A program made the position numbers and the translations under genes. Positions 6,697 to 39,370 of a stretch of DNA of 39,492 nucleotides are shown here, piece after piece. The notes under the pieces were generated by a model. That model saw only the letters and a program-made list of their open reading frames with translations, ran no database searches and had not been told where the DNA came from. Position 1 is the first letter of the stretch; each line of letters starts with the position of its first letter. Source of the DNA: an uncultured Desulfovibrionaceae bacterium (GTDB taxonomy: Bacteria; Desulfobacterota; Desulfovibrionia; Desulfovibrionales; Desulfovibrionaceae); NCBI GenBank assembly GCA_964369515.1, contig CAYJHK010000001.1, positions 1-39,492 of the forward strand. Reading direction: 5' to 3'.

Positions 6697-6728
6697 GATA
6701 ATATTTTTTATGGACGAAAAGGTCTGAT

Positions 6729-8975: not shown

Positions 8976-8989
8976 TATTAGGAAAAGTT

Positions 8990-9637
8990 ATGTTAAATGT
9001 CACAGAACTCCTGGAGAAAATCAAGGCTTCACCCTATGAGGAAGTGTTTATAAATGCGCCGCATACAGGCATTGTTACCTTTGCAAATGTAAGTGAAGGT
9101 AGCAAGGTGTATGGGCCTCAAGGCATGTGGAAAGAAAATCCCGGTTCCAAACTGGTTACTATTGAGCGTGAGCATAATCCAAAACCCATCAATGCGCCTG
9201 AAAAAGGTGAAGTATGTGCTATACATAAAGAACTCGAAGGTAAATTTGTGGAGGCAGGAACGCATCTTTTAACGGTACGACATTTTTTAACCAAGAATGA
9301 AGTAGTGCAAAAAATATTGAAACAAACCTTGCACCTTTTCAAAGCTCCAGAGCGTGCAAAATATTATTTTACGCCGGAAATTGACAAAAAAATACGTGCG
9401 TCCGGTTCGCAAGCAGTGTCCGTTTCCGATGGCATGGAGCTATTCATTATGTCACGCATGAAACGAGAAGCACCATTGCACTATAACGGGCCAAACGGTA
9501 TTATTTATGCCATATACTTCAAACACACGGAAAATGTAGATGCAGAGCAAGCATTGATTGGCGTTTGTCCGCCGGATCAGCTGGCTGCCATTGAAGAAGT
9601 GGTCTTGCGTGTACAGACAGAATGGCGGGAAAATTAA
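8990..9637 (+). CDS. hypothetical protein with two biotinyl/lipoyl-like hybrid-barrel repeats; candidate atypical BCCP
   Basis: The C-terminal repeat VSDGMELFIMSRMKREAPL..GIIYAIYFKHTENVDAEQALIGV has BCCP spacing with a Met-Lys at codon 158. The N-terminal repeat lacks it. The gene sits directly after the BC and CT genes. Confidence 0.5.
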   Translation: MLNVTELLEKIKASPYEEVFINAPHTGIVTFANVSEGSKVYGPQGMWKENPGSKLVTIEREHNPKPINAPEKGEVCAIHKELEGKFVEAGTHLLTVRHFLTKNEVVQKILKQTLHLFKAPERAKYYFTPEIDKKIRASGSQAVSVSDGMELFIMSRMKREAPLHYNGPNGIIYAIYFKHTENVDAEQALIGVCPPDQLAAIEEVVLRVQTEWREN

Positions 9638-9979: not shown

Positions 9980-10025
9980 TAAAGTCAAACAAATACAGTT
10001 TACCATATAATAAAAGGAGCTATTT

Positions 10026-10628
10026 ATGTTAAATAAAGTGCAACTTATCGGCCGTCTTGGAGCCGATCCCGAATTGAAATATTTGCAAAACGGTACCCCT
10101 ATGTGCAACTTTAGAGTTGCCACCGATGAATATTATAACGACAAGGAAGGAAATAGAGTCCAACAAACTGAATGGCATAGAGTTACTGTATTTCAACGCA
10201 GTGCAGAAAATTGCGGCAGGTACTTGTCTAAAGGTTCGCTTGTATATGTGGAAGGATCTTTGCAAACACGAAAATGGCAAGACCAACAGGGAAATGATCG
10301 TTACTCGACAGATATTAGAGCACAAAAAGTTCAGTTTCTTGATAGAAAAGGCGAAGGCGGCGGACAAGGTGGTCAAAACTGGCAAGGCGGACAGGGCGGA
10401 CAAAACTGGCAGGGCGGTCAAGGCGGACAGAGCGGTCAAGGCGGCGGCTGGCAAGACGGACAAGGCGGTGGCTGGCCGTCTGAAGCTGACAGCTATGGCA
10501 GCGAAAGCTTCCCTCAACAAAATCAAGCCAGACAACAAAGTGGTGGTGGCAGCACAGGCGGCGGTCAAGTACAAGATGGCTCACCATTTCCTTCCGAAGC
10601 CAGCGATATGGACAAATTTCCCTTTTAG
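10026..10628 (+). CDS. ssb: single-stranded DNA-binding protein
   Basis: OB-fold N-terminus MLNKVQLIGRLGADPELKY...TEWHRV. Gly/Gln-rich tail and aromatic-acidic tip DMDKFPF. RBS AAGGAG upstream. Confidence 0.93.
   Translation: MLNKVQLIGRLGADPELKYLQNGTPMCNFRVATDEYYNDKEGNRVQQTEWHRVTVFQRSAENCGRYLSKGSLVYVEGSLQTRKWQDQQGNDRYSTDIRAQKVQFLDRKGEGGGQGGQNWQGGQGGQNWQGGQGGQSGQGGGWQDGQGGGWPSEADSYGSESFPQQNQARQQSGGGSTGGGQVQDGSPFPSEASDMDKFPF
10359..10439 (+). repeat. three tandem 27-nt repeats inside the ssb tail (GGQGGQNWQ x2, GGQGGQSGQ)
   Basis: Read directly from the translation and nucleotides. Further degenerate GGGW units follow. Confidence 0.85.
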
Positions 10629-10681
10629 AGGAAAGGCTTCTTGATATAGAAATTTTAAGCATAAGTAAGGATATTACTACC

Positions 10682-10987
10682 ATGACAGAAAAAACTCCCC
10701 CCTTAAAAGTGATAGCCATAGTTGAAGCTAAGGATGGCGAGCGTGAGCTTGTGCGCTCTTCGTGCATTGATCTTATTGAACCTACCCGTGCAGAAGCTGG
10801 CTGCCAGCAATATGTACTCCATGAAGACAATGAAAATAAAAATATTTTCGCGTTTTATGAAACATGGGATAGTAAAGCTGCGCTTGAAAGCCATTTGCAA
10901 AGTGCACACTTTAAGCGTTTCGGAGAGGTAACAGCCAATAGCGTAGCTAATGTGCAAATACACCAACTAGCCGAATATCCAGCATAA
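10682..10987 (+). CDS. ABM-domain (antibiotic biosynthesis monooxygenase / YgiN-like) protein
   Basis: 101 aa. Ferredoxin-like ABM pattern (IVEAKDG...FYETWDSKAALESHLQSAHFKRF). Confidence 0.75.
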   Translation: MTEKTPPLKVIAIVEAKDGERELVRSSCIDLIEPTRAEAGCQQYVLHEDNENKNIFAFYETWDSKAALESHLQSAHFKRFGEVTANSVANVQIHQLAEYPA

Positions 10988-11040
10988 ATTTTTCTGCGCA
11001 TTAAATTATATAAGAAAATAATTGCGTAGAGTTCTTGCAA

Positions 11041-11070
11041 GGGGAAAAACTTTGTTACAAGTTTTTCCCC
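11041..11070. terminator. perfect 12-bp hairpin between convergent genes (bidirectional terminator candidate)
   Basis: GGGGAAAAACTT-tgttac-AAGTTTTTCCCC. No clean U-tract on either side. Confidence 0.5.
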
Positions 11071-11102
11071 TAAAATATGGAAAAGTGTACTCTGACTTGT
11101 TC

Positions 11103-11870
11103 CTAGCCAAAAACTCGGCCAAAATACTCTTCTATCTCATCTTCTTGTACGGATGCAGGATAGCTTACGGAAGCATATCCATCGCCCGAAAAACTACGAT
11201 CAATTTCCACCAGTAGGTGTACCGTATCTCCTTCAAGGATGAAGCTCAGTTCCACCTCATTGATAGTGCGTGTAGCCCAGCTAAAGATGCCGGCTGAGGC
11301 AGGGCGCAGTTCAATTTCTTGGTAAACCCCCGAAGAACTAGAAAAACTTGGCGTACTTAAATACCCTTTCTCCACGTCAACTTTCTGCACTTGAAAGCCT
11401 TTTTCCAAAAATTTATTGATCATCATTTCCACGGCCGGATGCGGCAAGACCGTAAGGTAGTCACGGTCATCGCTGTCAACTCCCCATTCAATGTCAAGTT
11501 CGGTATGAATCCAAACTTTGGTTTCATTTTTTTTGGTAGTTATGGCAGTTATGGGTGTTTCGGACGGTAGTTGTATACTAAAAGGTATTTCATATTTTTG
11601 CTTTGCTTCAACCTTCATGGGTTGATTGACCTGAATTTTTCCAATATCCATGTTAATATGGTAGGTTTCTTTTTCGCCGTCAGACTCCCTCTCGGCTTTG
11701 GCACGGGTTCTCACAGAAATTGTTATGTTATTAATATCTTGGTCTACTTTTCCGCCTTGAATATGCACAACACCTTCAACAATATCGCCTTGCATTAGGG
11801 TCATATTTTTTAAAACTGTATCAACTTTTGCGCTGCCGATACCAACTTTAGCCAATAATTTATCAAACAT
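11103..11870 (-). CDS. SpoOM-family (Spo0M-like) protein
   Basis: N-terminus MFDKLLAKVGIGSAKVDTVL is the typical SpoOM start. I placed the start at ATG 11870 rather than the upstream TTG at 11930. Confidence 0.75.
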   Translation of the reverse strand: MFDKLLAKVGIGSAKVDTVLKNMTLMQGDIVEGVVHIQGGKVDQDINNITISVRTRAKAERESDGEKETYHINMDIGKIQVNQPMKVEAKQKYEIPFSIQLPSETPITAITTKKNETKVWIHTELDIEWGVDSDDRDYLTVLPHPAVEMMINKFLEKGFQVQKVDVEKGYLSTPSFSSSSGVYQEIELRPASAGIFSWATRTINEVELSFILEGDTVHLLVEIDRSFSGDGYASVSYPASVQEDEIEEYFGRVFG

Positions 11871-12350
11871 AATCTTATCCTCGTGCTTTGTTTTTTGTTC
11901 CAAATAATGCATTTTCCCCAGCCTTTTCAAAAAATAATATATTTTTGTTTAAATGACAACTATTTTCATAGCCGCAGATACAATGCGAACATGACACGAA
12001 TCTCTATTGCCAGATTATAATCCAAATAAATTTGGCGTTAAGCTCCTCAAACAATAACATACACAAATTACATACTTTTCTTTCGCATAATTTTCTTGTT
12101 AAAATTGGAGATTAACGTTAATTAGAAATGGAGGAAAAAGAGTCATACTTTATTGTAAGTATGCCTTCATAACTATTTGATAAATTACTTTCAATCGTCC
12201 GAAACATAAGAACAAGTAATGCTACTTGTTTATGAAGAATACTCCTTCACTTAAGAAAATGTGCGGCGAATAAAAATTTAATTGCATTGTTTTGTAGTGT
12301 ATTTTAAGTCGAGAATACAGTGTTGAGAACAATTTAAGGAAGAAGTACTT

Positions 12351-12908
12351 ATGTCAAAATTTAAAAAAATTTTTATGGTTTTGAGCGTTATAATGGGGCT
12401 ACACATGCTAAGCATTTTTTGCTTTGCCATGGAAACCACGCCAAGTCACAAGCTTATGCCTTTGCGTTTTAATCAAAAAAAAGCAACAATCACTCTTTAT
12501 CCAAGGGATGCAGACTTGCGTTACGCCGACAATGTCATTGTGGAACCAAAATCTGCACCTTATAATCTTGGCGGATGGCGCACCGATAATACGGTTGCTT
12601 TTCCCCTTGAAATTAAAGAATCCGGAGAATATATTGTAAATATTTACTATAGCAAGGATAAGTCGGTCGGCTCAACAGGAGAACTTAGAATAGGCGGCGT
12701 ATCGGATTTAAGTATTAATTTACAAGCATATGACTATATTGATGTCAACGTACCATTTACCGGAAATTCTTGGTCAACATATAAAACAACTGTTCTTGGA
12801 AGTCTAAAATTACCACAAGGAAAAGTATATCTTGTGTTTATGGATCAAAAAAACAACGCCGGTCAATATGTGATGAATTTACGGGAAGTTAGACTGGAAA
12901 AAAAATAA
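12351..12908 (+). CDS. secreted protein, possible carbohydrate-binding-module-like beta-sandwich
   Basis: N-terminal signal-like hydrophobic segment (KKIFMVLSVIMGLHMLSIFCFA). RBS AAGGAAG. The CBM-like call rests only on a loose pattern (YKTTVLGSLKLPQGKVYLVF). Confidence 0.6.
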   Translation: MSKFKKIFMVLSVIMGLHMLSIFCFAMETTPSHKLMPLRFNQKKATITLYPRDADLRYADNVIVEPKSAPYNLGGWRTDNTVAFPLEIKESGEYIVNIYYSKDKSVGSTGELRIGGVSDLSINLQAYDYIDVNVPFTGNSWSTYKTTVLGSLKLPQGKVYLVFMDQKNNAGQYVMNLREVRLEKK

Positions 12909-12944
12909 TAAATTTAAGATGATGATTACTCATTTCCTCTTGAC

Positions 12945-12985
12945 GGGGAAGGGGACTCGCCCGGTTGCGCAAAGTCCTCTTCCCC
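12945..12985. terminator. G/C-clamped hairpin between convergent genes
   Basis: GGGGAAGGGGACT ... AGTCCTCTTCCCC (one mismatch) with a 15-nt loop. Confidence 0.45.
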
Positions 12986-13009
12986 AAAAAGATGATGAAT
13001 AATTGACTG

Positions 13010-15103
13010 TTAACTGTTCTTCAAATTCTCTACCAGAGCAGCAAGTTGCTGTGCCTGTTCAGTCAGGGATGCAACAGCTTGCGTTGCTTCATTCATGGCG
13101 TTAACGGTATTTGTTGCTATATTGGTCACGGTCATGATGGATTGGGCAATTTCATCAGATGTGGCTGATTGTTGTTCACTGGCTGTAGCAATGGCTCGAA
13201 TTTCATCGGCACTGTGTTCTGCCATCTCCAAAATACCCTGCAAAGCATGTCCGCCTTCTATGGCAAGTTCCGTAGCTTCTTCAATGCGTGCCACTGCTGT
13301 ATCCACTTGCTGAACGTTGACTTCAGTGCTTTGCTGAATGGCATTAATGGCATTGGCAACATCGGTGGTGGATGAGATGGTTTTTTCTGCAAGCTTGCGT
13401 ACTTCATCGGCAACAACAGCAAATCCACGTCCGGCTTCACCGGCTCTTGCAGCTTCAATGGCGGCGTTGAGCGCAAGCAAGTTGGTTTGGTCGGCGATAT
13501 CAGAAATAACACTCATAACCGCACTGATTGATTGCGCATGGCTGGCAAGCTCGCTCATATTTTGGCGCAATTTCAACGATTCATCCTTAACATGCGTCAT
13601 GGAGACTTGGCATTTTTGGGTGATGTTTGCACCGTCAATGGCCTTAGCCTTGGTATTGTCGGCAAGTTCGGCACTGGTGCCGGAGTTTCTGGCCACTTCC
13701 AGCACGGTACCATTCATTTCGTCCATAGCTGTGGCTGTTTCTGTCATTCGTGCCGATTGTTCTTCCGCACCTGAGGTGGACATTTCAATCTGTGCTGAAA
13801 GTTGTTCGGAAGCAGATGCAATATTATTGACAATGCCTTCAAGCTTTGTCACTGCAATCAAGATATTTTTTCTGCTTTCTTCAGCTTCTGCCGCCGATTT
13901 CTCAGCTTGTTTTGTAGCTATGGCCGCATTGTCGGCAGCAACTTGTGCTTCCTTGCTCTTTTCTTCGGATTGAACTACCATAGCAGCAAGATTATTGATC
14001 ATCGCTCTAAAAGCAGCACCTAGGTTTGAAAACTCGTCTTCACGCTTTAAGGCAGCATCAATCTGTGCGTCTTGTTCAGCGGTCAACTTTAAGTTGCCTT
14101 CAGCCACATAGGTTGCGATGTTGGCACTTTGCGAAACGACAACCACCACTTTTTTGATAACAAAATAAACAATAAGCGCCACAATAAATACTATACCTAT
14201 GCTGATAAATGCAAGTATCAGAGTGATTCCATTGGATGTCGTATAAAAATCGCTTTCATCGGTTTCTATGCCCACAATCCATTTTGTGGTGGGCAACTCT
14301 GCAAAATGGGTAAGCTTATCCACGCCTTCCCACTCGTAACGGGTAATGCCGTTTTTTTCGGCCAATACCGTACGAATATATTCGTAAATGCTGTTATCTT
14401 TACCGATAAGCTCCGGAAAGCTTTTTTCCATCAACATTATACCATCGGCATCCACCAAGAAAACACTGGAGGAAGGCATAAGCGTAACTGATTTAATGGT
14501 ATCATCGGCAACGGCATTAAGGTCTACCACAAGCAACAATACACCGTCGGCAAGTTCGTTAGACCCATCTACCGTAATGGGTGAAGTAACCATAATACTT
14601 AGCTTATTTGTAGTTTTAGACATGTTGGTCTTGAAATTGGCCTTACCGCTAAAGGCTTCCACAACGCTTGGGTACCTGCTGACGTCCACTCGAGCCGAAC
14701 TGGGACTGGATGCGGCAATTGTTTTACCGTCCTTTGCCACGATAGCGGCAGCCACAACGTCGGGAAAATCTTCGCACAGTTCAGCGAGCGTTTCTTCGGT
14801 TATCTTTTTTCTGGCAGTAAAGTCATAATCAGAGTCTCGTGCTTGTCCCAAGGAATTGGCCCGTGCGGTGAAATCTTCAATGTCTTGATCGCTATCCAAC
14901 ATATCGGCAAGAGCTATGACATTTTTAAAGATATTATCAATTTCAGAAGCTTGCTTTTTGGCAAACTCAAGTAATTGGATATCCGATGTTTTATACAGTC
15001 CGCTTGAAGTAAGTTGCGCTGCCATAAACGTAAGTACGGCAAAGCCCAAAATAATGGGGATTAAGGTAAAAAGTAATACCTTTCCGAGGAGCTTTAGTTT
15101 CAT
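13010..15103 (-). CDS. methyl-accepting chemotaxis protein (TM, Cache-like periplasmic sensor, TM, HAMP, MCP signalling domain)
   Basis: Invariant hairpin [37 protein letters not shown]. Start moved to ATG 15103 because AAGGA lies 8 nt upstream of it. Confidence 0.92.
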
Positions 15104-16107: not shown

Positions 16108-16306
16108 TTATCGGTCCATTGAAAAAATCTGTTCCAAAAAGTTTTTTAATAAAATGTTAACTTTATCGTTTTCCTACAGGTTGTTCAAAAAGTGTAAGAT
16201 ACGAGGAAGACGAAGTTTTTTTGCGTAGGGAGTGTATACAGACATACATGACCGGAGCAAAAAACGAGTCTGACGAAGTAGATTGCACTTTTTCAAAAGC
16301 CTGTTA
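16108..16306 (+). repeat. 199-bp repeat A, copy 1 (copy 2 at 39172-39370)
   Basis: Hand alignment is gapless and nearly identical. It contains an internal imperfect inverted repeat GTTCAAAAAGTGTAAGATAC / GTAGATTGCACTTTTTCAA. Confidence 0.85.
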
Positions 16307-30569: not shown

Positions 30570-32432
30570 ATGAAAAAGTTTTACAAAAATTCATCTAAAG
30601 CTACATCATTTTTCCCTTGTTTGTTATTGTTTGTCTTTGTGCAAATGCTTCCGCTTTCCGGTAGTTTTGTGGCGCACGCCAAGAACAGCGATATTGACAG
30701 CATCATCCGTGAAGCAGAAAATCGGCGTATAAAAATAACCAAGACCATGGAAGAAAGTACGGTCTTTATTTTTTATGCTGACAGTGACGGCGATGTCAGC
30801 CTTGGTACGGGCTTCGTAGTGGGCGATGGCTACATTCTCACCAATGGGCATGTGGTTGAAGGCGGCAGCAGTTTTTATGTAACAGGAAAAAGTTTTACAC
30901 CGGTAAAAGCTAAGCTTATCAAAATGATTGATAACAATGTGGATGATTTCGCAGTGTTGCAATTTACGCCTCCCGTCAAATTACCCATCTTGAGTTTTAA
31001 TCTTAATTTGAACCGCTCCGATAGGGTGAATGCGTGGGGCTTTCCCTATGCCTATACGCAATTTGATAAGAATACCGACGCCTTGCTTAGCGGAGACAGC
31101 GACGTTGTGCCGCCGGTCATTACCACAGAAGGTGTTGTCAATGCTTTCATAACGACCGATACAAAAATGAACAGCATTTTGCATTCAGCTAATATTGCCA
31201 AGGGCAACAGCGGTGGACCGCTCGTCAATAGCCGTGGACATGTGGTTGGCGTAAACACTTGGATTTCTGCGGAAGAAGGGGAGGGCTCTCACGTCAACGC
31301 CGCACTTACCGCACGGGCTGCCATTGCTTTTTTGCGCTCTGCCGGTGTGGAGCCACGCATTGAGGGCGGTGAAGATGTACCTTCGCAGCATTCGCAGCAG
31401 TTGGCAGAGAATAAGCGCAAAGGGCCTTACGCAACCAAATCCTTTGATTTAAGTGATGACGACTCCGACAGCGACTCCGGCTCTGCTCCCGGTAGCGACG
31501 GTCTTACGGGCGATGCTAAAGATATCTATCCCATGGCGGTGGAAGGCAATGCCGAAGCACAAGCATATCTTGGCCTTGCTTATTGGGAAGGTGATTCTGC
31601 CCCCAAGGACATGCAAAAATCCCTATATTGGTTTAGAAAAGCAGTTCAAAATGATGATAATAACGCCAAAGCATTGCTGGCCTTTATCTACCTCACTGAA
31701 GTTGATTTCTTAAATGTAGAGGAAGGCATGAAATTGTTAGAGCAAGCGGCTGAAAAAGATGCTGAATATGCATCCGGCTTTGCGCTTTTTTCATTTCGAG
31801 GCGAAATGTTGGGCATAGAACGTAATGTGGAAAAAGCCGTGCGTGCTGCCAAACGTGGCACAGAGGTTGGAGATACCGAAGCCATGGGTTTATTGGCTCT
31901 TCTCTATTGCACAGGCGATGGCGTGGAGGCGGACACAAAATACGCTTTTGAACTTGCGGAAAAAGCCGCCAAAGACGATGTGGGCTTGGCTTATGCTGTG
32001 TTAAGCTGGATTCATCACGATGGAGATGTGGGAGAAGCTGACTACGAAAAGGCCGTAAGTTATGCCAAAAAAGCCATTGAAGAAGATGAATCCCTTGGCA
32101 GTGCCTTGCTTGGCATGTATTATCATGATGGGCATGGTGTGGAACAAGATTATGATAAAGCCTTTAAATACGCCAGTGAGGCAGCGGAGGCTTTTGAGGA
32201 GACAGGGCAATACCTCTTGGGCTTGCTCTATGCCAACGGTGAAGGGGTGAAGAGTAATAATGTTAAGGCTTGGGCGTATTTTGACATGGCAGCTCGCAAA
32301 GACGTGAGTAATGCCGCAGAAAATCGTGACAGCGTAGCTGAGGATATGAGTGAGAAAGAAATTAAGGACGCCAAAGCATTGGTGAAACAATGGCATTCGC
32401 AGTATGGCTTGAAGTATGTGGAAAACTACTAA
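30570..32432 (+). CDS. secreted trypsin-like (chymotrypsin-fold) serine protease fused to Sel1/TPR-like repeats
   Basis: Signal peptide. Triad contexts TNGHVV, DDFAVL and GNSGGPLV. Acidic linker DLSDDDSDSDSGS. At least 6 Sel1-type repeats (AQAYLGLAYWEG..., GLLYANGEGV...). Confidence 0.88.
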   Translation: MKKFYKNSSKATSFFPCLLLFVFVQMLPLSGSFVAHAKNSDIDSIIREAENRRIKITKTMEESTVFIFYADSDGDVSLGTGFVVGDGYILTNGHVVEGGSSFYVTGKSFTPVKAKLIKMIDNNVDDFAVLQFTPPVKLPILSFNLNLNRSDRVNAWGFPYAYTQFDKNTDALLSGDSDVVPPVITTEGVVNAFITTDTKMNSILHSANIAKGNSGGPLVNSRGHVVGVNTWISAEEGEGSHVNAALTARAAIAFLRSAGVEPRIEGGEDVPSQHSQQLAENKRKGPYATKSFDLSDDDSDSDSGSAPGSDGLTGDAKDIYPMAVEGNAEAQAYLGLAYWEGDSAPKDMQKSLYWFRKAVQNDDNNAKALLAFIYLTEVDFLNVEEGMKLLEQAAEKDAEYASGFALFSFRGEMLGIERNVEKAVRAAKRGTEVGDTEAMGLLALLYCTGDGVEADTKYAFELAEKAAKDDVGLAYAVLSWIHHDGDVGEADYEKAVSYAKKAIEEDESLGSALLGMYYHDGHGVEQDYDKAFKYASEAAEAFEETGQYLLGLLYANGEGVKSNNVKAWAYFDMAARKDVSNAAENRDSVAEDMSEKEIKDAKALVKQWHSQYGLKYVENY

Positions 32433-32478
32433 GCAAAAGAGCATACGTTATTGATAAATATCATTGTTTTTCTAATAT

Positions 32479-32760
32479 AGTCGAAGCTGAAAAACATGTT
32501 AACAGTCTAAAATTAAATATTTTTTCAGTTAAAATATGTAAATAAAAATGCCGAAAACAAGGGCATGGAATGCACTTTTCCGGCATTTTTATGACGCTAA
32601 AACATGGTTTTTCTGTGACGGCTAACAAAATTTGAACGATAGTGAAAATTTTGCGCCACGTAAAATGAGCCGGAATTCACTTCCGGCGCCCCCGAAGGGG
32701 CATTTGGAGTGAGCGTGCCTTTCTGAAAAATGCATGAAAATGCGTTTTTCAGCTTCGACT
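32479..32760 (+). repeat. 282-bp structured repeat B, copy 1 (MITE-like; 17-bp terminal inverted repeats)
   Basis: Begins AGTCGAAGCTGAAAAAC and ends GTTTTTCAGCTTCGACT. Several internal hairpins. Gapless alignment to 37259-37540. Confidence 0.85.
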
Positions 32761-32762
32761 AG

Positions 32763-32843
32763 TTAGTAGTGGTTAGTGGTTAGTTGATGAGGTTGCTACG
32801 CTCAACATTTACTGCCCACTAGCCACTAATCACTACCCACTAA
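32763..32843. repeat. inverted arrays of the heptamer TTAGTGG
   Basis: Plus strand has TTAGT-AGTGG-TTAGTGG-TTAGTTG at 32763-32786. Four consecutive complements CCACTAG/CCACTAA/TCACTAC/CCACTAA lie at 32816-32843. Confidence 0.8.
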
Positions 32844-33066
32844 AAAGTTACATTTTAACACAAAATATTATATTTTGTCCGAATTTCAAATTAGAACGCC
32901 GTGTAATTTTTATGTACGAGAACATTTTGCACTTGCTTTTAAATGTACTAGAATATAAACTAAGTCTAGGAAAATGTTTGCGATAGAAAACACCAAGCTA
33001 AGTTACTACTTTTGCCACGGATTGTTAAAGCTAATATCAATTGTCTATATAAACACGGAGTAAAAT

Positions 33067-33657
33067 ATGAGCTGGGACAATTTTACCAAAAGCGTACAAA
33101 CAGGACTTTCAACAATTTCTTTCCAAACTGAAAACAAAGAGCTTATTCCAGAAGACGCATTCTTGTTTTGGCAAAATTTAGGTGAAAACACAAGAAATAA
33201 CGGGAACAATTTATTCCTGATAGGCAATGGAGCCAGTGCTGCAATGGCAAGTCATTATGCAACAGACCTTGGTAAAAATGCACTTTTAAAAACCCTCACT
33301 TTTTCAGATGCTTCTTTATTAACAGCTCTTGGAAATGATATAGATTTTTCGCATATTTTTTCTGAACCAATTTCTCGCTTGGGACATGCCGGGGATATGT
33401 TGATAACAATTTCAAGCTCAGGAAATTCACCCAATATCATTAGGGCAATAAACACCGCTCGCTCTTTGAATATGATTATTATTACACTTTCAGCTATGAA
33501 AAAAGATAATAAAAGCCGGACTCTTGGAGATTTGAACATATATGCTCCGGTACAAACATATGGGCTTGCAGAAACAATACATGCAGCAATTTTACACCAT
33601 TGGACAGACTGCATGGTTTTATCTTGGAAAAATCATTTGAAGGGTAAATCATGCTAG
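33067..33657 (+). CDS. SIS-domain sugar-phosphate isomerase, GmhA (phosphoheptose isomerase)-like
   Basis: LIGNGASAAMASHYATDLG and GNDIDFSHIFSEPISRLGHAGDMLITISSSGNSPNIIRAINTARSLNMIIITLS align well from memory with E. coli GmhA. Confidence 0.85.
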   Translation: MSWDNFTKSVQTGLSTISFQTENKELIPEDAFLFWQNLGENTRNNGNNLFLIGNGASAAMASHYATDLGKNALLKTLTFSDASLLTALGNDIDFSHIFSEPISRLGHAGDMLITISSSGNSPNIIRAINTARSLNMIIITLSAMKKDNKSRTLGDLNIYAPVQTYGLAETIHAAILHHWTDCMVLSWKNHLKGKSC

Positions 33658-35171
33658 AAGCAGATAAGAAGTATAAAAAAGAACTTGAAAAAATAGCTAA
33701 TATTATAAGTAAGCTACGTAAAGAAGGTAAGAAAATTGTTCTATGTCATGGAGTCTTTGACCTTCTGCATATAGGGCATATCCGCTATTTGCGAGCATCT
33801 AAAAAACTCGGAGATGTCCTTGTTGTTACAATGTCACCGGATCATTACGTTGATAAAGGGCCTGGGCGTCCTGCATTTTCTGAGCACTTACGCTTGGAAG
33901 CAATAGCATCTCTTGATTGCGTAGATTATGCCGCCATCAATGCTTGGGCAACAGCCGAAGAAACTTTACGCCTGCTACGCCCTGATATTTATTCAAAAGG
34001 TTCTGAATTTAAAAACTTAGAAGATGCAACAGGCAAGATTGCCCGTGAAAATAGTGTCGTAGAAGAAATAGGTGCTACAATACACTTTGTGGAAGATATT
34101 GTGTTTTCATCATCAAACCTCATCAATCAATATCTGTCACAATCTTCTGATGAATGTCGTGAATATTTACGGCAATTTAAACAACGCTACACTGACAGCC
34201 AAATTTTTCTTGAACTAAATCGCATGAAATCATTAAATGTGTTGGTGCTTGGTGATATGATTTTAGATGAGTATATTTATTGCTCAGCTCTTGGCGCATC
34301 GTCAAAAGACCCTGTTCTTGCAGTTAATTTTCAATCATCAGAAGTGTTTGCCGGTGGTTCCGCAGCAATAGCCAACCATGTAGCCCAACAAGCCGGCAGT
34401 GTTACACTTTGCTCTGTACTCGGTGATGATAATAAAGAAAATTGGATTCGTGAGCATTTAAATGAAAACATCATCTTTAAACCTTTTTTGCGCCCAAATA
34501 GTCCTACAGTCCGTAAACAACGCATTATGGACGGCTATAGCTTTCAAAAGTTGATTGAAGTTTATCATATGGAGGCTTCGCCCCTCCCCGAAGATATTGA
34601 ACAAGCTATGCAAGCTTGGATATTAGAAGACATACAAAAGTATGACCTTGTAATTGCAGCAGACTTTGGACATGGCTGCATAAGTGCAAAATTAGCAAGT
34701 TTAATCTCAGAACATGCTGAATTTTTAGCAGTAAATACACAAGCCAATGCCGGAAATCGTGGTTACCATACTATTAGCCGCTATCCAAGAGCTGACTTTA
34801 TATCTTTAGCCGGACATGAGATTACTTTGGAATATCGCAATCAAAAAATCACTACAAGTGCAATGATGACAGATTTACAACATCGCCTTTCTTGTCCAAC
34901 TGTACTTGTTACCGAAGGCAGAAAGGGTTGTGCTGTTTTGCGTGAAGATTTTACTCGTGCGCCTTCATTTGCATCTAATGTCATAGACCGCGTCGGTGCA
35001 GGCGATGCCCTTTTTTCAATTGCAGCTATGGGAGCAAGACTAGGATTTCCCATAGATTTAATGGGATTTTGCGGTAATATTGCAGGCTCTCTTGCTGTTG
35101 AAACCATTGGCAATGCCAAAGCTGTCAGTAAAAATGCTATGCTTCGCTATATAACAGCCATTTTAAAGTAG
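33651..35171 (+). CDS. bifunctional nucleotidyltransferase (cytidylyltransferase-fold, N-terminal) / PfkB-family sugar kinase (C-terminal); HldE-like with reversed domain order
   Basis: N-terminal CHGVFDLLHIGHIRYL (HxGH motif). C-terminal LVLGDMILDEYIY and DRVGAGDALFS (PfkB GAGD). Overlaps the upstream gene by 7 nt. Confidence 0.85.
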   Translation: MLEADKKYKKELEKIANIISKLRKEGKKIVLCHGVFDLLHIGHIRYLRASKKLGDVLVVTMSPDHYVDKGPGRPAFSEHLRLEAIASLDCVDYAAINAWATAEETLRLLRPDIYSKGSEFKNLEDATGKIARENSVVEEIGATIHFVEDIVFSSSNLINQYLSQSSDECREYLRQFKQRYTDSQIFLELNRMKSLNVLVLGDMILDEYIYCSALGASSKDPVLAVNFQSSEVFAGGSAAIANHVAQQAGSVTLCSVLGDDNKENWIREHLNENIIFKPFLRPNSPTVRKQRIMDGYSFQKLIEVYHMEASPLPEDIEQAMQAWILEDIQKYDLVIAADFGHGCISAKLASLISEHAEFLAVNTQANAGNRGYHTISRYPRADFISLAGHEITLEYRNQKITTSAMMTDLQHRLSCPTVLVTEGRKGCAVLREDFTRAPSFASNVIDRVGAGDALFSIAAMGARLGFPIDLMGFCGNIAGSLAVETIGNAKAVSKNAMLRYITAILK

Positions 35172-35178
35172 TATATAT

Positions 35179-36141
35179 ATGTCAAGCTATACTTTATTTG
35201 ACCGCAAGCGTTTACGTTTACTCCCATTAAAAGAGCGTAAACATGACCTACACGGAGATATTATTTCACCGTTAAATAAATGTAATGAAATAGAACCGGA
35301 ATTGCAAATCGCAGCAAAAAAACTTATTGCCGCAAAAAAAGCAAATAAAGCTCGCATTTTTCAATGCGGTGCGCATGTCATCCGCTCAGGTGTTCAAAAC
35401 TATCTTTTTGAGCTTATGGAGCAAGGTTTTATTTCCTGCCTTGTTTTTAATGGTGCTTGTGCTATTCATGATTTTGAATTTGCTCTAATCGGAGCAACAA
35501 CTGAATCCGTAGCCACATATATTAAGAATGGTCAATTTGGACTATGGAAAGAAACAGGGCGTTTAAATGATATCATAAATAGTGGCTGGAAAAATGGTCT
35601 CGGCATTGGTGAATCTGTAGCACGTGAAATTGCTAACGGAAATTATGCCTATAAACATTACAGTATTTTTGCAAAAGCTTGGGAGTGTCGCATTCCTATA
35701 ACGGTACATATTGGCATTGGACATGATATCATTCATGAACACCCAAATTGCAATGGAGAAGCTTTAGGCGGTGCAAGCTATACGGATTTTCTTATTTTTA
35801 CAAATGAGCTTGAAAAGTTAGAGCATGGTTGTGTATATACATTTGGGAGTGCAATTATGGCACCGGAAGTCTTTTTAAAAGCTTTGGCCATGGTGCGCAA
35901 TGTTGCAGAGCAAGAAGGACGCAGTATAAAGCAATTCACGTCCTTGGTTTGCGATTTGCAGAATTTACCCCAAAATATACATGAGGAAGCGAAAAAAAAT
36001 GACCCTCGTTACTATTTTCGCCCATGGAAAACATTGCTTTCACGCACAGTATCTGATGGTGGTGAAAGTTTATATGTTTGTGGTAGGCATGAACATACTA
36101 TACCGGCACTTTGGAGTGCAATACAAAGAGAATTAAATTAA
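35179..36141 (+). CDS. deoxyhypusine-synthase-like (DHS-fold) protein, function unknown
   Basis: FQCGAHVIRSGVQNYLFELMEQGFISCLVFNGACAIHDFEFALIG parallels the DHS segment L.G....G.R..I..L......D..VT..G....D...AL as I remember it from archaeal and human DHS. Confidence 0.5.
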   Translation: MSSYTLFDRKRLRLLPLKERKHDLHGDIISPLNKCNEIEPELQIAAKKLIAAKKANKARIFQCGAHVIRSGVQNYLFELMEQGFISCLVFNGACAIHDFEFALIGATTESVATYIKNGQFGLWKETGRLNDIINSGWKNGLGIGESVAREIANGNYAYKHYSIFAKAWECRIPITVHIGIGHDIIHEHPNCNGEALGGASYTDFLIFTNELEKLEHGCVYTFGSAIMAPEVFLKALAMVRNVAEQEGRSIKQFTSLVCDLQNLPQNIHEEAKKNDPRYYFRPWKTLLSRTVSDGGESLYVCGRHEHTIPALWSAIQRELN

Positions 36142-36171
36142 TGAATATTCTTATAAATTAGGGAGTTTGCT

Positions 36172-37260
36172 TTGTCCACTGATAAAACTCGTGCTGACAA
36201 GTTTCGTATAGACAGCCACAAACTTAATCTACATCCACAACGTGTAGCCGATTGGCTCAACGGGAAGATAATTGCTCCCATATATATGGAAGTGAGTCCA
36301 TCCGGTGCCTGCAATCATCGCTGTTCATTTTGTGGACTTGATTTCATGGGGTATAAGGCTAATTTTTTACCAACTGAGCTTTTTTCTGAACGCTTAGCAG
36401 AAATGGGTGAATATGGACTTAAGTCTATCATGTTTGCCGGTGAGGGCGAGCCACTTTTACATAAAAACATTATTACCCTTTCTGAAAATGCCAAAAAATC
36501 AGGCATCGATATAGCCTTTACGACCAATGCCGTTTTACTTACGCCTGAAAAATCAGAAGAATTACTGCCCATAACGAGCTGGATAAAGGTTAGCTGCAAT
36601 GCCGGCACAAAAGAAAGTTATGCCAAAATTCATGGAACAAATTCTTCTGATTTTGATAAAGTATTAGCTAATATTGAGCAAGCTGTAATTATTCGCAAAA
36701 AACAAAATAGTTCTTGTACTATTGGTATGCAAATGATTTTACTGCCTGAAAACAGAGATTCAGCATTTCAATTTGCACAAAAAATCCGTGGGCTTGGAGT
36801 TGACTATTTAGTTATTAAACCATATTCGCAACATCCGCAAGGTATTTCAAATAATTATGAAAATGTTTGTTATTCAGATTGCGATATACTAGCGCAACAA
36901 CTTGAATCATTAAATACAAATACTTTTAAATGTATTTTTCGTTATGAAACTATGCACCGTCAAGCTATTGGAAAAAAAGCATATAACCGTTGCCAAGCTT
37001 TACCTTTTTGGAGCTATATTGACGCTAAAGGAAATGTTTGGGGTTGCAGTGTTTTTTTAAGCGATGAGAGATTTATATATGGCAATATAAATCGACAAAA
37101 TTTTAAAGAAATTTGGGAAAGTAATGTGCGCAAAAGACATCTTGAATGGATTGCCAACTCCTTTGACGCTTCAAATTGTCGCATAAATTGTCGCATGGAC
37201 GCCATAAATGCTTATCTTTGGGAATTGACCCACCCTAATGCCCATGTAAATTTTATTTAG
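36172..37260 (+). CDS. radical SAM enzyme with C-terminal SPASM/Twitch-like Cys motif
   Basis: CNHRCSFCG (Cx3Cx2C) at 36310-36333. GEGEPLL. C-terminal RCQ...GNVWGCS...YGNI...FKEIW...NCRINCR. TTG start with GGGAG upstream. Confidence 0.85.
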   Translation: MSTDKTRADKFRIDSHKLNLHPQRVADWLNGKIIAPIYMEVSPSGACNHRCSFCGLDFMGYKANFLPTELFSERLAEMGEYGLKSIMFAGEGEPLLHKNIITLSENAKKSGIDIAFTTNAVLLTPEKSEELLPITSWIKVSCNAGTKESYAKIHGTNSSDFDKVLANIEQAVIIRKKQNSSCTIGMQMILLPENRDSAFQFAQKIRGLGVDYLVIKPYSQHPQGISNNYENVCYSDCDILAQQLESLNTNTFKCIFRYETMHRQAIGKKAYNRCQALPFWSYIDAKGNVWGCSVFLSDERFIYGNINRQNFKEIWESNVRKRHLEWIANSFDASNCRINCRMDAINAYLWELTHPNAHVNFI

Positions 37261-37540
37261 TCGCCACTGAAAAACATGATAACAAACTTAAATTAAACAA
37301 CTTTTTAGTTAAAATGCGCAAATAAAAATGCAGGAAACAAGGGTGCGAAGTGCACTTTTCCGGCATTTTTATGAAGCTTAAACATGATTTTTCAGTGACG
37401 ATTAACAAAATTTGAGCGTAAGCGAAAATTTTGCGCCACGTAAAATGAGCCGCAATTCACTTGCGGCGTCCCCGAAGGGGCATTTGGAGTGAGCGTGCCT
37501 TTCTGAAAAATGCATGAAAATGCGTTTTTCAGCTTCGACT
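37259..37540 (+). repeat. 282-bp structured repeat B, copy 2
   Basis: By my hand count, 34 mismatches and no gaps versus copy 1 (about 88 percent identity). The right-hand ~110 nt are almost identical. Its first bases overlap the stop codon of the radical SAM gene. Confidence 0.85.
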
Positions 37541-37573
37541 ATTTGAGACAATTTTAATTTGTAGCGTGATGTA

Positions 37574-39157
37574 ATGCCAAACTTTATTTTAGGTATAGAT
37601 TTAGATAATACTCTTATTAATTATAATCAACTTTTTTATAACCTTGCAGTAGAAAGTGAACTTATTGATCTTAATACCCCTGCTAATAAAACAGCAGTGA
37701 GGAATAGGGTACGCAAACTCTATACAGATGCTGAATGGCAAAAATTACAGTGGTATGCTTATGGTAGCTATTTGCACAAAGCATCTTTATTTCCATTTGT
37801 CAGAGATGCTCTAAAATGGCTTACTGAAAGTAATATAAAATTATATATCATTAGCCATAAAACTGAATACGCTGATATTGATAAAGAAAAAACTGTCAGT
37901 TTAAGAGAAAGTGCTTTGAACTTTTTAGAAGAACAGGGGATTTTCTCATTTATACCAAGTGAAAATGTTATCTTTTGTAATAGCATGACTGAAAAATGTG
38001 CTGCTATAGCAAGAGTAAATTGCACCGATTTCATAGATGATTTACCAGAATTTTTAGGACATGATGCCTTTCCAAACTCAGTGCATAAAATTATGTTTTG
38101 CCCGCAAGGCATAGAGTTTCCAAACGTTCATAATTGTTCAATATTACGTAGTTTTAATGCTTTATCGCTTTTCTTTACACCACAAAAAGAAAAAACTCGC
38201 ATTCATGGTGGCAGAAATAGCCGAGTATGGCATTGGCAATCACCTATTGGAGCTGTCGCAATAAAAGATATTTGCTGTGTAGCAGATGACCCTAGGCAAC
38301 GTGATGCCGCAGAGTGGCGTGCATGGTGTTTCTTAGAAGAATACGGGCTAAATAAGCAACCTACTGCATTAATGAGAGATGTTCGATATGAACAGATTAT
38401 TTCAACTTGGATAAATGGTGCAGCAATTAAAACAATTGAAAATAATGACATTGAACAATTATCAGATTTTTTCAAAGAACTTTACGAATTAAGAGAATTC
38501 GCACAGGTATTGCCACCCGCCGCTGATGCTTGTTTTAATTTACGAGCACTGGACATACATATTCAAGAACGTATTGACCGCCTGCTAAACGCTAAACGAG
38601 AACAAAGGTTTGAGCTTGAATATAATAAGCTTAGTGCTTTTTTAAAATGGGAACTTATCCCCATTTATGAAGAGAGCATTAAGCTCAGTTATAAGGCTTA
38701 TGCAGAAAATAACATACTTGTGGATATGGCACTGTCTTCTGAATTATGTATGCCAAGCCCTTCTGATTTTGGTTTGCACAATGCTTTAAGAACAAATGCA
38801 GGCTTAAAATTTATTGATTTCGAATACTTTGGAAAAGATGACCCTGTGAAGTTGATTTGTGATACTATATTACACCCGGCACTGCCCATGACTGAAGCAG
38901 AAAGACAAGATTTCTTTAATATGGTTTGTGAAAAATGCCAGTTCATTGAAATAGATAAAAACTTTATGGTACGCTTTAAATCCCACTTTCCTTTATGGAA
39001 AATTAAATGGGCGTGCATAATTTTGAATGAGTTTTTAAAATCAGGCCAAAAAAGAAGAATAATTGCCAATGAAAGTGAAGTAATTTCATCTGAAATTTTG
39101 CAATTACAACTACAAAAAGCTGAGCAAATGTTACAAAAAAATATGCCATGTTTGTAA
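37574..39157 (+). CDS. fusion of a HAD-like phosphatase domain (N-terminal) and an APH/choline-kinase-fold phosphotransferase domain (C-terminal)
   Basis: HAD motif I ILGIDLDNTL, motif II IISHKT, acidic motif FIDDLPE. Kinase-fold motifs GGRNSRVW...AIKD and PSDFGLHNAL...FIDFEYFGKDDP. Confidence 0.75.
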   Translation: MPNFILGIDLDNTLINYNQLFYNLAVESELIDLNTPANKTAVRNRVRKLYTDAEWQKLQWYAYGSYLHKASLFPFVRDALKWLTESNIKLYIISHKTEYADIDKEKTVSLRESALNFLEEQGIFSFIPSENVIFCNSMTEKCAAIARVNCTDFIDDLPEFLGHDAFPNSVHKIMFCPQGIEFPNVHNCSILRSFNALSLFFTPQKEKTRIHGGRNSRVWHWQSPIGAVAIKDICCVADDPRQRDAAEWRAWCFLEEYGLNKQPTALMRDVRYEQIISTWINGAAIKTIENNDIEQLSDFFKELYELREFAQVLPPAADACFNLRALDIHIQERIDRLLNAKREQRFELEYNKLSAFLKWELIPIYEESIKLSYKAYAENNILVDMALSSELCMPSPSDFGLHNALRTNAGLKFIDFEYFGKDDPVKLICDTILHPALPMTEAERQDFFNMVCEKCQFIEIDKNFMVRFKSHFPLWKIKWACIILNEFLKSGQKRRIIANESEVISSEILQLQLQKAEQMLQKNMPCL

Positions 39158-39171
39158 TTTAATCATTGCGC

Positions 39172-39370
39172 TTATCAGTCCGTTGAAAAAATCTGTTCCA
39201 AAAAGTTTTTTAATAAAATGTTAACTTTATCGTTTTCCTACAGGTTGTTCAAAAAGTGTAAGATACGAGGAAGACGAAGTTTTTTTGCGTAGGGAGTGTA
39301 TACAGACATACATGACCGGAGCAAAAAACGAGTCTGACGAAGTAGATTGCACTTTTTCAACAGCCTGCTA
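39172..39370 (+). repeat. 199-bp repeat A, copy 2
   Basis: Near-identical to 16108-16306 in the same orientation. In both places it lies just 3' of a plus-strand gene. Confidence 0.85.

Follow-up and report, generated by a model that had tools for sequence, protein, structure and literature searches.

A conserved gene block for a putative modified, heptose-derived nucleotide sugar in an uncultured Desulfovibrionaceae bacterium

Introduction

Nucleotide-activated heptoses are building blocks of lipopolysaccharide (LPS) and innate-immune agonists, and the pathway leading to them is regarded as solved. Its enzymes are GmhA, the HldE kinase, GmhB, the HldE transferase and HldD, the last being an NADP-dependent epimerase in Escherichia coli. 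Here we analyse a block of five open reading frames (ORF1 to ORF5) in contig CAYJHK010000001.1 from an assembly (GCA_964369515.1) of an uncultured Desulfovibrionaceae bacterium. The whole stretch of 39,492 nt is called the window below; the block occupies positions 33067-39157 of its plus strand. The encoded pathway is a variant of nucleotide-heptose biosynthesis, and the question it raises concerns a widespread family rather than this locus in particular. We consider it probable, at about 0.6, that the block represents a conserved operon for a nucleotide-activated, heptose-derived (possibly longer-chain) modified sugar of a surface glycan, acquired horizontally by a Desulfovibrionaceae bacterium.

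Besides the classical pathway, several described systems can be compared with this block. The GDP-octose branch of lincomycin biosynthesis uses the transaldolase LmbR, the isomerase LmbN, the kinase LmbP, the phosphatase LmbK and the nucleotidyltransferase LmbO. It has in common with the block and its relatives a chain extension, a GmhA-like isomerase, a 1-kinase, a terminal phosphatase and a nucleotidyltransferase. On the other hand, it employs a transaldolase (C3) and a GHMP kinase where the present system has a transketolase (C2) and a PfkB kinase, and it belongs to an antibiotic cluster rather than to a surface-glycan locus of anaerobes. The radical S-adenosylmethionine (SAM) enzymes DesII and BlsE act on nucleotide-linked sugars.

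In Geobacter sulfurreducens, a protein of a deoxyhypusine synthase (DHS)-like family is encoded between an hldE-like and a gmhA-like gene (GSU2085-GSU2086-GSU2087), and this trio gave NCBIfam family NF052581 its name. The protein of this family in the window is about 55-65% identical to any database relative. The support for the Geobacter trio is purely genetic: transposon mutants of GSU2085 (hldE), GSU2086 and GSU2087 (gmhA) had similar electrode-growth defects and appeared alongside those of LPS genes (PMC5585712).

The HldE homologue CBU0678 of Coxiella burnetii has its domains reversed and is needed for full-length (phase I) LPS; the core heptose comes from the classical HldE, CBU1655 (PMC5843353). 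CBU0678 was acquired horizontally together with its neighbours (PMC5843353; PMC5423948), of which CBU_0679-0682 are ordinary dehydrogenases and a methyltransferase (supplementary table of PMC5423948), and its product was still undefined in a 2026 review (PMC13552124). The neighbours comprise an NADH-dependent dehydrogenase, a UDP-glucose dehydrogenase, a short-chain dehydrogenase/reductase (SDR) and a methyltransferase, with no GSU2086 or radical SAM protein listed. Since only the HldE-like gene is common to both, we rejected the Coxiella O-antigen locus as an instance of the same block. In the searchable literature we found no description of the gene cluster studied here.

Domain content of the block

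A first-pass annotation of the window, made from the sequence, had named a SIS isomerase, a nucleotidyltransferase and a PfkB kinase, and all three calls held in Pfam profile searches. ORF1 scored 53.5 bits against SIS_2 (PF13580) with a cut-off of 27, and the SSSGNS phosphate-binding motif and an H..D motif are readable in its translation. In ORF2 the transferase domain is N-terminal (CTP_transf_like, PF01467, 46 bits; residues ~18-160) and the PfkB kinase is C-terminal (PF00294, 51 bits; residues ~188-498), which is the reverse of the order in E. coli HldE. The catalytic motifs HIGH (HxGH) and GAGD are both present. Among the NCBIfam equivalog models, those for phosphoheptose isomerase scored ORF1 at 79-88 bits (83-88 for TIGR00441 and NF010546), far below their cut-offs of 209-276; rfaE_dom_II and rfaE_dom_I scored ORF2 at 98 and 140 bits, both under the respective cut-offs, and the bifunctional HldE model NF008454 reached 167.7 bits compared to a cut-off of 521.

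For ORF5 the phosphatase call of the first-pass annotation rests on the motif set, and the kinase call on the orthologues. The HAD motifs DxDxT, SHKT, K and DD are intact and invariant; the HAD_2 model, with a cut-off of 23.8 bits, gave 18.2. In the kinase part the motifs GGRNSRV, K, SDFGFHN and DFEY do not vary either, the window protein included. APH (PF01636) was matched by 10 of 12 orthologues of ORF5, with a best E-value of 1.7e-11, and the window protein itself had no Pfam hit. The closest sequence to the kinase in the PDB was corramycin phosphotransferase (E-value 8.7e-8); the same kind of search gave no match for the whole HAD-APH fusion and none for the HAD profile. Most genomes encode the two domains in neighbouring genes of their own; fusions occur in the window and in two other loci (L018 and L088).

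Compared with the classical nucleotide-heptose pathway, the block has the same kinds of parts: a SIS isomerase, a bifunctional PfkB 1-kinase/nucleotidyltransferase, a HAD phosphatase and a fifth enzyme predicted to be dinucleotide-dependent. It differs in the reversed order of the bifunctional protein, in the sub-equivalog scores and in having a HAD protein outside the GmhB type. Instead of an SDR fold, the fifth enzyme has one that resembles DHS and ornithine cyclodeaminase (OCD). The block also adds a radical SAM enzyme and an APH-like kinase, and its relatives add a transketolase, a methyltransferase and a second radical SAM enzyme.

Conservation of the gene set

We scanned one genome per GTDB species for relatives of the ORF3 product, the GSU2086-family protein. 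At least 536 species genomes hold a stretch encoding such a relative; the carriers include Desulfobacterota, Planctomycetota (Brocadia and Scalindua among them), Nitrospirota, Omnitrophota, Verrucomicrobiota and Magnetococcales. Among 1.8 billion cluster representatives, 630 clusters matched at E <= 1e-30. The gene set, with its named NCBIfam family and this number of carriers, is therefore not rare.

The composition of the set was counted in 58 species-level loci that had 5 kb or more of sequence on either side. The gene for a reversed HldE adjoined that for GSU2086 in 53 of the 58, whereas an orthologue of the SIS gene was present in 40, of the radical SAM gene in 33, and HAD with APH in 19. 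All four core genes were found in 27 loci and all five genes in 11, while the exact gene order of the window appeared in two (L013 and L068). Several loci had the reversed HldE and GSU2086 only, with or without SIS.

The usual order was [NeuB-like]-reversed HldE-GSU2086-SIS-radical SAM-HAD-APH-transketolase N-transketolase C-methyltransferase-second radical SAM. In the nearest relative (L088), with 65-67% identity in the reversed HldE and GSU2086, the operon continues past HAD-APH with the two transketolase halves, the methyltransferase and the second radical SAM gene. The window, on the other hand, ends 335 bp past ORF5 and 122 bp past the second copy of a 199-bp repeat. Because the operon continues in the relatives and the window stops just past a repeat, the contig most likely ends mid-operon, and the five ORFs are the promoter-proximal part. 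The five genes that the first-pass annotation took for a unit do recur elsewhere, but they are not the whole system, given the transketolase halves, the methyltransferase and the radical SAM gene of the relatives.

The wider neighbourhood was tabulated for 83 loci. The two halves of a split transketolase were found in 36 and 31 of them, a methyltransferase in 35, a NeuB-family protein in 18 and a PseC-type aminotransferase in 17. Other frequent neighbours were B12-radical SAM enzymes, SDR epimerases, NeuC-like enzymes, CMP-sugar cytidylyltransferases, glycosyltransferases of family GT2 and a YerE-like thiamine pyrophosphate enzyme. For example, Solidesulfovibrio carbinolicus carries the block on a 133-kb plasmid (pDCAR1, NZ_CP026539.1, 68521-99468; locus L083), surrounded by pseB, pseC, pseF, a NeuB-family synthase, an acylneuraminate cytidylyltransferase, split transketolase genes, ATP-grasp and methyltransferase genes and four further radical SAM genes. 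This context suggests a link between the block and glycans of the nonulosonic-acid type.

We also observed a second architecture, GSU2086-stand-alone nucleotidyltransferase-divergent reversed HldE-SIS-radical SAM, in Nitrospirota, Omnitrophota and Brocadia (at ~10000-14700 of loci L008, L020, L029, L032, L034, L035, L039, L048, L062, L069, L070 and L079). Here the stand-alone nucleotidyltransferase was ~60% identical to the N-terminal domain of ORF2, and the reversed HldE was 34-38% identical to that of the window. Such operons thus contain two transferase domains.

The GSU2086-family protein

ORF3 scored 364.9 bits against NF052581, 'GSU2086 family protein', over residues 7-313 of 320 (cut-off 250). 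The family is named in NCBIfam and biochemically uncharacterised. The first-pass annotation had called the protein DHS-like, and this was supported at the level of the fold and failed at the Pfam cut-off: the deoxyhypusine synthase model DS (PF01916) gave 17 bits against 27 and covered only residues 44-105, and the match to ArgZ-like_C_2nd was marginal. With an AlphaFold model (predicted local distance difference test score, pLDDT, 87.7), Foldseek found the LOR/SDH protein 3c2q, the ornithine-cyclodeaminase domain of AgrE/ArgZ and deoxyhypusine synthases, with E-values down to 1.8e-9 and template modelling (TM) scores of about 0.5 (0.46-0.55).

A profile alignment with the AgrE/ArgZ domain covered the motifs GxxVIxxG (GAHVIRSG in ORF3) and HD(F/I)E (IHDFE). 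The likeness of ORF3 to DHS and AgrE/ArgZ consists of this region and a Rossmann-like dinucleotide-binding fold. Conversely, the TM score of ~0.5 is low, 20 homologues of ORF3 have 95 invariant columns of their own, rich in His, Asp and Glu, and the partners of GSU2086 are sugar-nucleotide enzymes rather than enzymes of polyamine or arginine metabolism. The structure of AgrE/ArgZ was solved with NAD+. A 2026 paper mentions recent work in which an ornithine cyclodeaminase proved to use a nickel-pincer adenine dinucleotide cofactor (PMC13524815), and ORF3 weakly matches TIGR00300, which NCBIfam describes as nickel-pincer nucleotide-dependent ornithine cyclodeaminase. By this precedent, enzymes of the ORF3 kind can host unusual dinucleotides. 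None of the annotated recurrent neighbour families of GSU2086 was a nickel-pincer gene (LarB/C/E), in a search that was not exhaustive.

In other genomes the GSU2086 domain is fused to SIS, nucleotidyltransferase, HAD or PfkB domains, or to an ARMT1-like phosphatase together with a nucleotidyltransferase (P0243, P0244, P0246, P0248, P0270, P0286, P0301 and P0368). Some of these proteins could be gene-calling artefacts of metagenome assemblies. As Rosetta-stone fusions, they place GSU2086 within a pathway from a sugar phosphate to a nucleoside diphosphate (NDP)-sugar. The idea that GSU2086 is itself the missing phosphatase was set aside, since the domain is fused to HAD or ARMT1-like phosphatases. 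With phosphatases among its partners GSU2086 is probably not one, and by elimination it would be the fifth activity, in the place that the NADP-dependent epimerase HldD holds in E. coli.

The radical SAM enzyme

The radical SAM/SPASM-like call of the first-pass annotation passed the profile test for ORF4, with a SPASM domain that is shortened. ORF4 scored 68.3 bits against Radical_SAM (PF04055; cut-off 29.5), and the cysteines of its CX3CX2C motif (C47, C51 and C54) were invariant in 31 orthologues. Against SPASM (PF13186) the score was 30.2 bits (cut-off 21.5), and the seven-cysteine motif was absent. The only further invariant cysteines were four in the C-terminal part (274, 292, 336 and 340) and C182. 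This small number suggests a single auxiliary cluster of a twitch-like kind instead of the full SPASM pair.

The structure model of ORF4 (pLDDT 80) had DesII as its best fold match in the PDB, with an E-value of 2.8e-16 and a TM score of 0.64; SuiB, BlsE (eleventh) and anSME also matched. By sequence, the PDB gave weak matches only (E-value about 1e-4). DesII and BlsE are thus among the solved structures nearest to ORF4, and the genomic context fits an NDP-sugar substrate. On the other hand, their sequence identity to ORF4 is only 17-18%, their NCBIfam models scored ORF4 at 42 and 29 bits with cut-offs of 450 and 400, and ORF4 differs from them in its four conserved C-terminal cysteines for an auxiliary cluster.

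Layout, composition and origin of the block

The five ORFs are co-directional, exactly as first claimed, with a 7-nt overlap between ORF1 and ORF2 and gaps of 7 nt between ORF2 and ORF3 and of 30 nt between ORF3 and ORF4. The AT-richness and codon bias attributed to the region were borne out as well. The GC content was 0.367 across positions 32479-39370 compared to 0.444 in the remaining window (por, 0.488). The GC content at third codon positions (GC3) ranged from 0.25 to 0.29 in the block genes, with a mean of ~0.27, and from 0.31 to 0.52 in 19 other genes (mean 0.42, sd 0.046); the GC3 of each block gene was below that of each of the 19 (Mann-Whitney p = 4.7e-5). Promoter and terminator scans gave signals no better than those of shuffled sequences, and scans of the window for Rfam families and tRNAs found neither.

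The acetate kinase AckA of the host is 86-89% identical to proteins from metagenome-assembled genomes at NCBI and 70-77% identical to Desulfovibrionaceae proteins, while the block proteins have no relative above 61-67% identity. The GC3 gap and this lower identity point to a horizontal acquisition of the block into a Desulfovibrionaceae genome. An empty site was not seen in the close relatives (AckA 86-89%), whose contigs end before the region or diverge after ackA.

Repeats around and within the block

The first-pass annotation had also reported a repeat of 282 bp on both sides of the first four genes, a heptamer palindrome at the left edge and a 199-bp repeat at the right edge. All of them are present and beyond chance (Table 1). 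The copies of the first repeat align at 32475-32764 and 37255-37544, in direct orientation and with 88% identity, and the alignment set the exact length at 284 bp. Each copy begins and ends with the 18-bp inverted repeat TAGTCGAAGCTGAAAAAC, a motif with 4 matches in the window compared to 0.08 expected by chance, and TA stands on either side of both copies. The element has no coding capacity, and as RNA it would form a long hairpin (z = -7.2 relative to shuffles). It had no match in Rfam and was not found in the other fetched loci by BLAST, nor in two scans of JGI metagenome contigs.

Being non-coding, with inverted ends, TA flanks and a long hairpin, the 284-bp element looks like a miniature inverted-repeat transposable element (MITE). 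Its small size agrees with this; it has two copies only and no known parent transposase, and ORF and domain scans found no transposase in or near the block region. The stop codon TAG of ORF4 is formed by the first three bases of copy 2 (37258-37260). The last residues of ORF4, HVNFI, are invariant among orthologues, so the protein is intact and copy 2 was inserted exactly at the gene end. The orthologues of ORF4 and ORF5 are adjacent in relatives with nothing in between. The two repeats are therefore incidental MITE-like insertions and not boundaries of a unit.

Table 1. Coordinates of the block genes and of the repeats and hairpin near them in the window
Feature	Position	Strand	Description
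ORF1	33067..33657	+	SIS-domain sugar-phosphate isomerase, GmhA-like, divergent
ORF2	33651..35171	+	Nucleotidyltransferase and PfkB sugar kinase; HldE-like, domain order reversed
ORF3	35179..36141	+	GSU2086-family protein; DHS/ornithine-cyclodeaminase-like dinucleotide-binding fold
ORF4	36172..37260	+	Radical SAM enzyme with shortened SPASM (twitch-like) C-terminal domain; TTG start
ORF5	37574..39157	+	Fusion of HAD phosphatase (residues ~1-200) and APH/choline-kinase-like kinase (residues ~200-527)
MITE-like element, copy 1	32478..32761		284 bp, perfect 18-bp terminal inverted repeats, TA flanks
MITE-like element, copy 2	37258..37541		284 bp, between ORF4 and ORF5
Hairpin	32760..32842		GTTAGTG-type heptamers and their complement, directly after MITE-like copy 1
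199-bp repeat	39172..39370		Second copy at 16108-16306, 98% identical; both intergenic, 23 kb apart

The heptamer hairpin has a folding free energy of -36.2 kcal/mol (z = -5.4 relative to shuffles) and is found after copy 1 of the MITE-like element but not after copy 2. Possible roles are termination of the protease gene upstream and protein binding, or it may be one more repeat element. The protease gene, at 30570-32432 directly upstream of the block, encodes a secreted-looking trypsin-like serine protease with at least four Sel1 repeats and an Asp/Ser-rich linker. The 199-bp repeat has the short inverted ends TTGAAAAA and TTTTTCAA; neither Rfam nor the fetched loci contained a match. This repeat may be the reason why the assembly broke off here.

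Proposed route and alternative explanations

From the observed domain identities, gene-set conservation, fusions, fold relationships and compositional anomaly we infer a route: its substrates, product and final acceptor, the order of its steps, what GSU2086 catalyses and with which cofactor, and the reaction of the radical SAM enzyme. The SIS protein would isomerise a ketose phosphate (sedoheptulose-7-phosphate or a close analogue) to an aldose, the PfkB domain would phosphorylate C1, the HAD domain of ORF5 would strip the terminal phosphate, and the nucleotidyltransferase domain would yield the NDP-sugar. The GSU2086 protein, with a tightly bound NAD-type dinucleotide, might carry out a transient oxidation leading to epimerisation or to a keto intermediate. 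The DesII-like radical SAM enzyme could act on the NDP-sugar by radical chemistry (to deoxygenate, dehydrogenate or epimerise it), and the APH-like kinase may add or prime a phosphate. The genes expected past the contig end (split transketolase, methyltransferase and second radical SAM) would complete the tailoring. In the relatives the transketolase may lengthen the initial sugar phosphate by a two-carbon unit (the lincomycin route likewise begins with a chain extension), or it may add a two-carbon branch to a keto sugar.

Several observations weigh against this route. The SIS protein and both HldE-like domains lie far under the equivalog cut-offs, so heptose is a putative substrate. The NCBIfam matches of ORF5 include no model of the GmhB family, and its HAD domain has a long insert between motifs I and II. 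The first-pass annotation had found 'exactly' the four activities of heptose activation; the domain types are indeed there, but with a HAD domain of another type than GmhB the correspondence is an analogy and not an identity. The NAD-type dinucleotide cofactor of ORF3 is predicted from the fold alone, and in the searched literature we found no biochemical characterisation of the GSU2086 family or of the ORF4 subfamily. The window shows no gene for a glycosyltransferase, a flippase or an acceptor, and among the 83 loci a GT9 heptosyltransferase was near the block in two only. Low GC content, finally, is also typical of weakly expressed genes and by itself does not prove transfer.

Could the block simply make ordinary LPS heptose? 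It might be an inner-core ADP-heptose pathway assembled from non-orthologous parts, with GSU2086 in the place of HldD, the HAD protein in that of GmhB, the radical SAM enzyme and the kinase as accessories, and standard ADP-glycero-manno-heptose as the product. Five activities would then map one-to-one onto GmhA, the HldE kinase, GmhB, the HldE transferase and HldD. In Geobacter, GSU2085-2087 are annotated as hldE, hypothetical and gmhA, and their mutants behave like LPS mutants; Pseudodesulfovibrio indicus has a GT9 heptosyltransferase 5 kb from the block; and the loci with the reversed HldE and GSU2086 only, with or without SIS, are minimal ones for which the explanation may hold. Still, about half of the loci add radical SAM enzymes, a split transketolase and methyltransferases that a plain pathway does not need, and GT9 is scarce near the block. 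The GmhA and HldE equivalog cut-offs are widely missed, in Coxiella the reversed HldE works for the O-antigen and leaves the core to a separate classical HldE, and a low-GC, horizontally acquired look is ill-suited to core housekeeping. On balance we regard ordinary heptose as unlikely, and the extra enzymes make a modified nucleotide sugar the best reading, as the first-pass annotation had proposed. That annotation had left room for a small phosphorylated metabolite too, a free or cofactor-like molecule instead of a glycan precursor. We agree with its remark that the visible 7 kb contain no glycosyltransferase, flippase or polymerase; moreover, a kinase, a phosphatase, two radical SAM enzymes and a transketolase resemble a metabolite tool kit, and small amines are the substrates of DHS and OCD, to which GSU2086 is related. 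The metabolite alternative is weakened by the glycosyltransferases and nonulosonic-acid genes that are common neighbours elsewhere, together with aminotransferase and LPS genes. A nucleotidyltransferase fused to a kinase is a hallmark of sugar activation for transfer, and the genetic phenotypes of the relatives concern LPS. A free metabolite therefore seems quite improbable, and the nucleotide-sugar part of the earlier proposal is the one that stands.

The remaining alternatives concern the setting of the block rather than its chemistry. The first-pass annotation had described a repeat-bracketed cassette; read as a mobile composite, it would have the four genes between the 284-bp copies move as a unit. 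Two direct copies with 88% identity do flank these genes, the composition of the block is anomalous, and a related block resides on the Solidesulfovibrio plasmid. Yet each copy, small as it is, is complete in itself, with 18-bp inverted ends and TA on both sides; no transposase lies in or near the region, and the element was not found in the other loci and metagenome contigs scanned. At least 11 other genomes have the operon uninterrupted where copy 2 stands in the window, and the low-GC tract extends across copy 2 and on through ORF5; the block is thus not bounded by the repeats, the description was not borne out, and a composite mobile cassette is very improbable. An anti-phage defence island, for example one with a viperin-like radical SAM enzyme and nucleotide-modifying partners, is hardly credible. 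ORF4 scored 57-61 bits against the PADLOC pVip models and 54.9 bits against the NCBIfam model of prokaryotic viperin (NF038283), and the block is an AT-rich island with debris of mobile elements. But the viperin score is far under the cut-off of 180, the pVip match covers the generic radical SAM core only, and the other four proteins had no PADLOC match. Across hundreds of genomes the conserved partners belong to sugar pathways, and the best fold match of ORF4 is DesII and not viperin. With these PADLOC results and this gene context we rejected the defence reading.

The preferred reading, an operon for a modified, heptose-derived nucleotide sugar, matters mainly beyond this genome. A divergent version of a pathway thought to be settled recurs across several anaerobe phyla; in it a reversed HldE is nearly always coupled, and sometimes fused, to a DHS/OCD-fold protein, and radical SAM enzymes and a private transketolase often join them. 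At least two of the enzyme families involved have no reaction assigned to them, and the product may be a surface sugar not described so far. A stronger version of the proposal can be offered only tentatively: GSU2086 would be a new class of sugar-nucleotide-modifying enzymes on the DHS/OCD fold, using NAD or a nickel-pincer cofactor, which with its DesII-like partner and the transketolase makes an undescribed heptose or C8-C9 envelope sugar in many anaerobes. Such a sugar would possibly be branched and methylated, and its carriers would be Desulfobacterota, Planctomycetota including the anammox bacteria, Nitrospirota and Omnitrophota. Tractable carriers exist in G. sulfurreducens and P. indicus. 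The copy in the window is one more, interrupted by a MITE-like element, in a gut-type Desulfovibrionaceae genome, and is of modest value alone.

Other features of the window

The remaining genes of the window are housekeeping genes: por-pta-ackA, thiG/thiH, acetyl-CoA-carboxylase-like genes, motAB, and genes for a methyl-accepting chemotaxis protein and a hybrid histidine kinase. Besides the tract that holds the block, smaller low-GC patches are found at 11.5-13 kb, 15-17 kb and 29.5-31 kb. At 11100-13000 (GC content 0.33-0.35) there are a minus-strand Spo0M-like gene and an ORF of 185 amino acids without a Pfam match (GC3 0.31), and this patch may be another acquired segment.

A helicase of 980 amino acids is encoded at 104-3046, with DEAD/Helicase_C, winged-helix, MrfA-type Zn-binding and C-terminal RNase H-like domains. 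The genes at 5269-9637 encode a biotin carboxylase, a carboxyltransferase of 748 amino acids and a weakly matching biotinyl-carrier-like protein. The ACCA/Carboxyl_trans matches of the carboxyltransferase are confined to its N-terminal ~330 residues, and the three genes look like an acyl-CoA carboxylase operon of unusual architecture.

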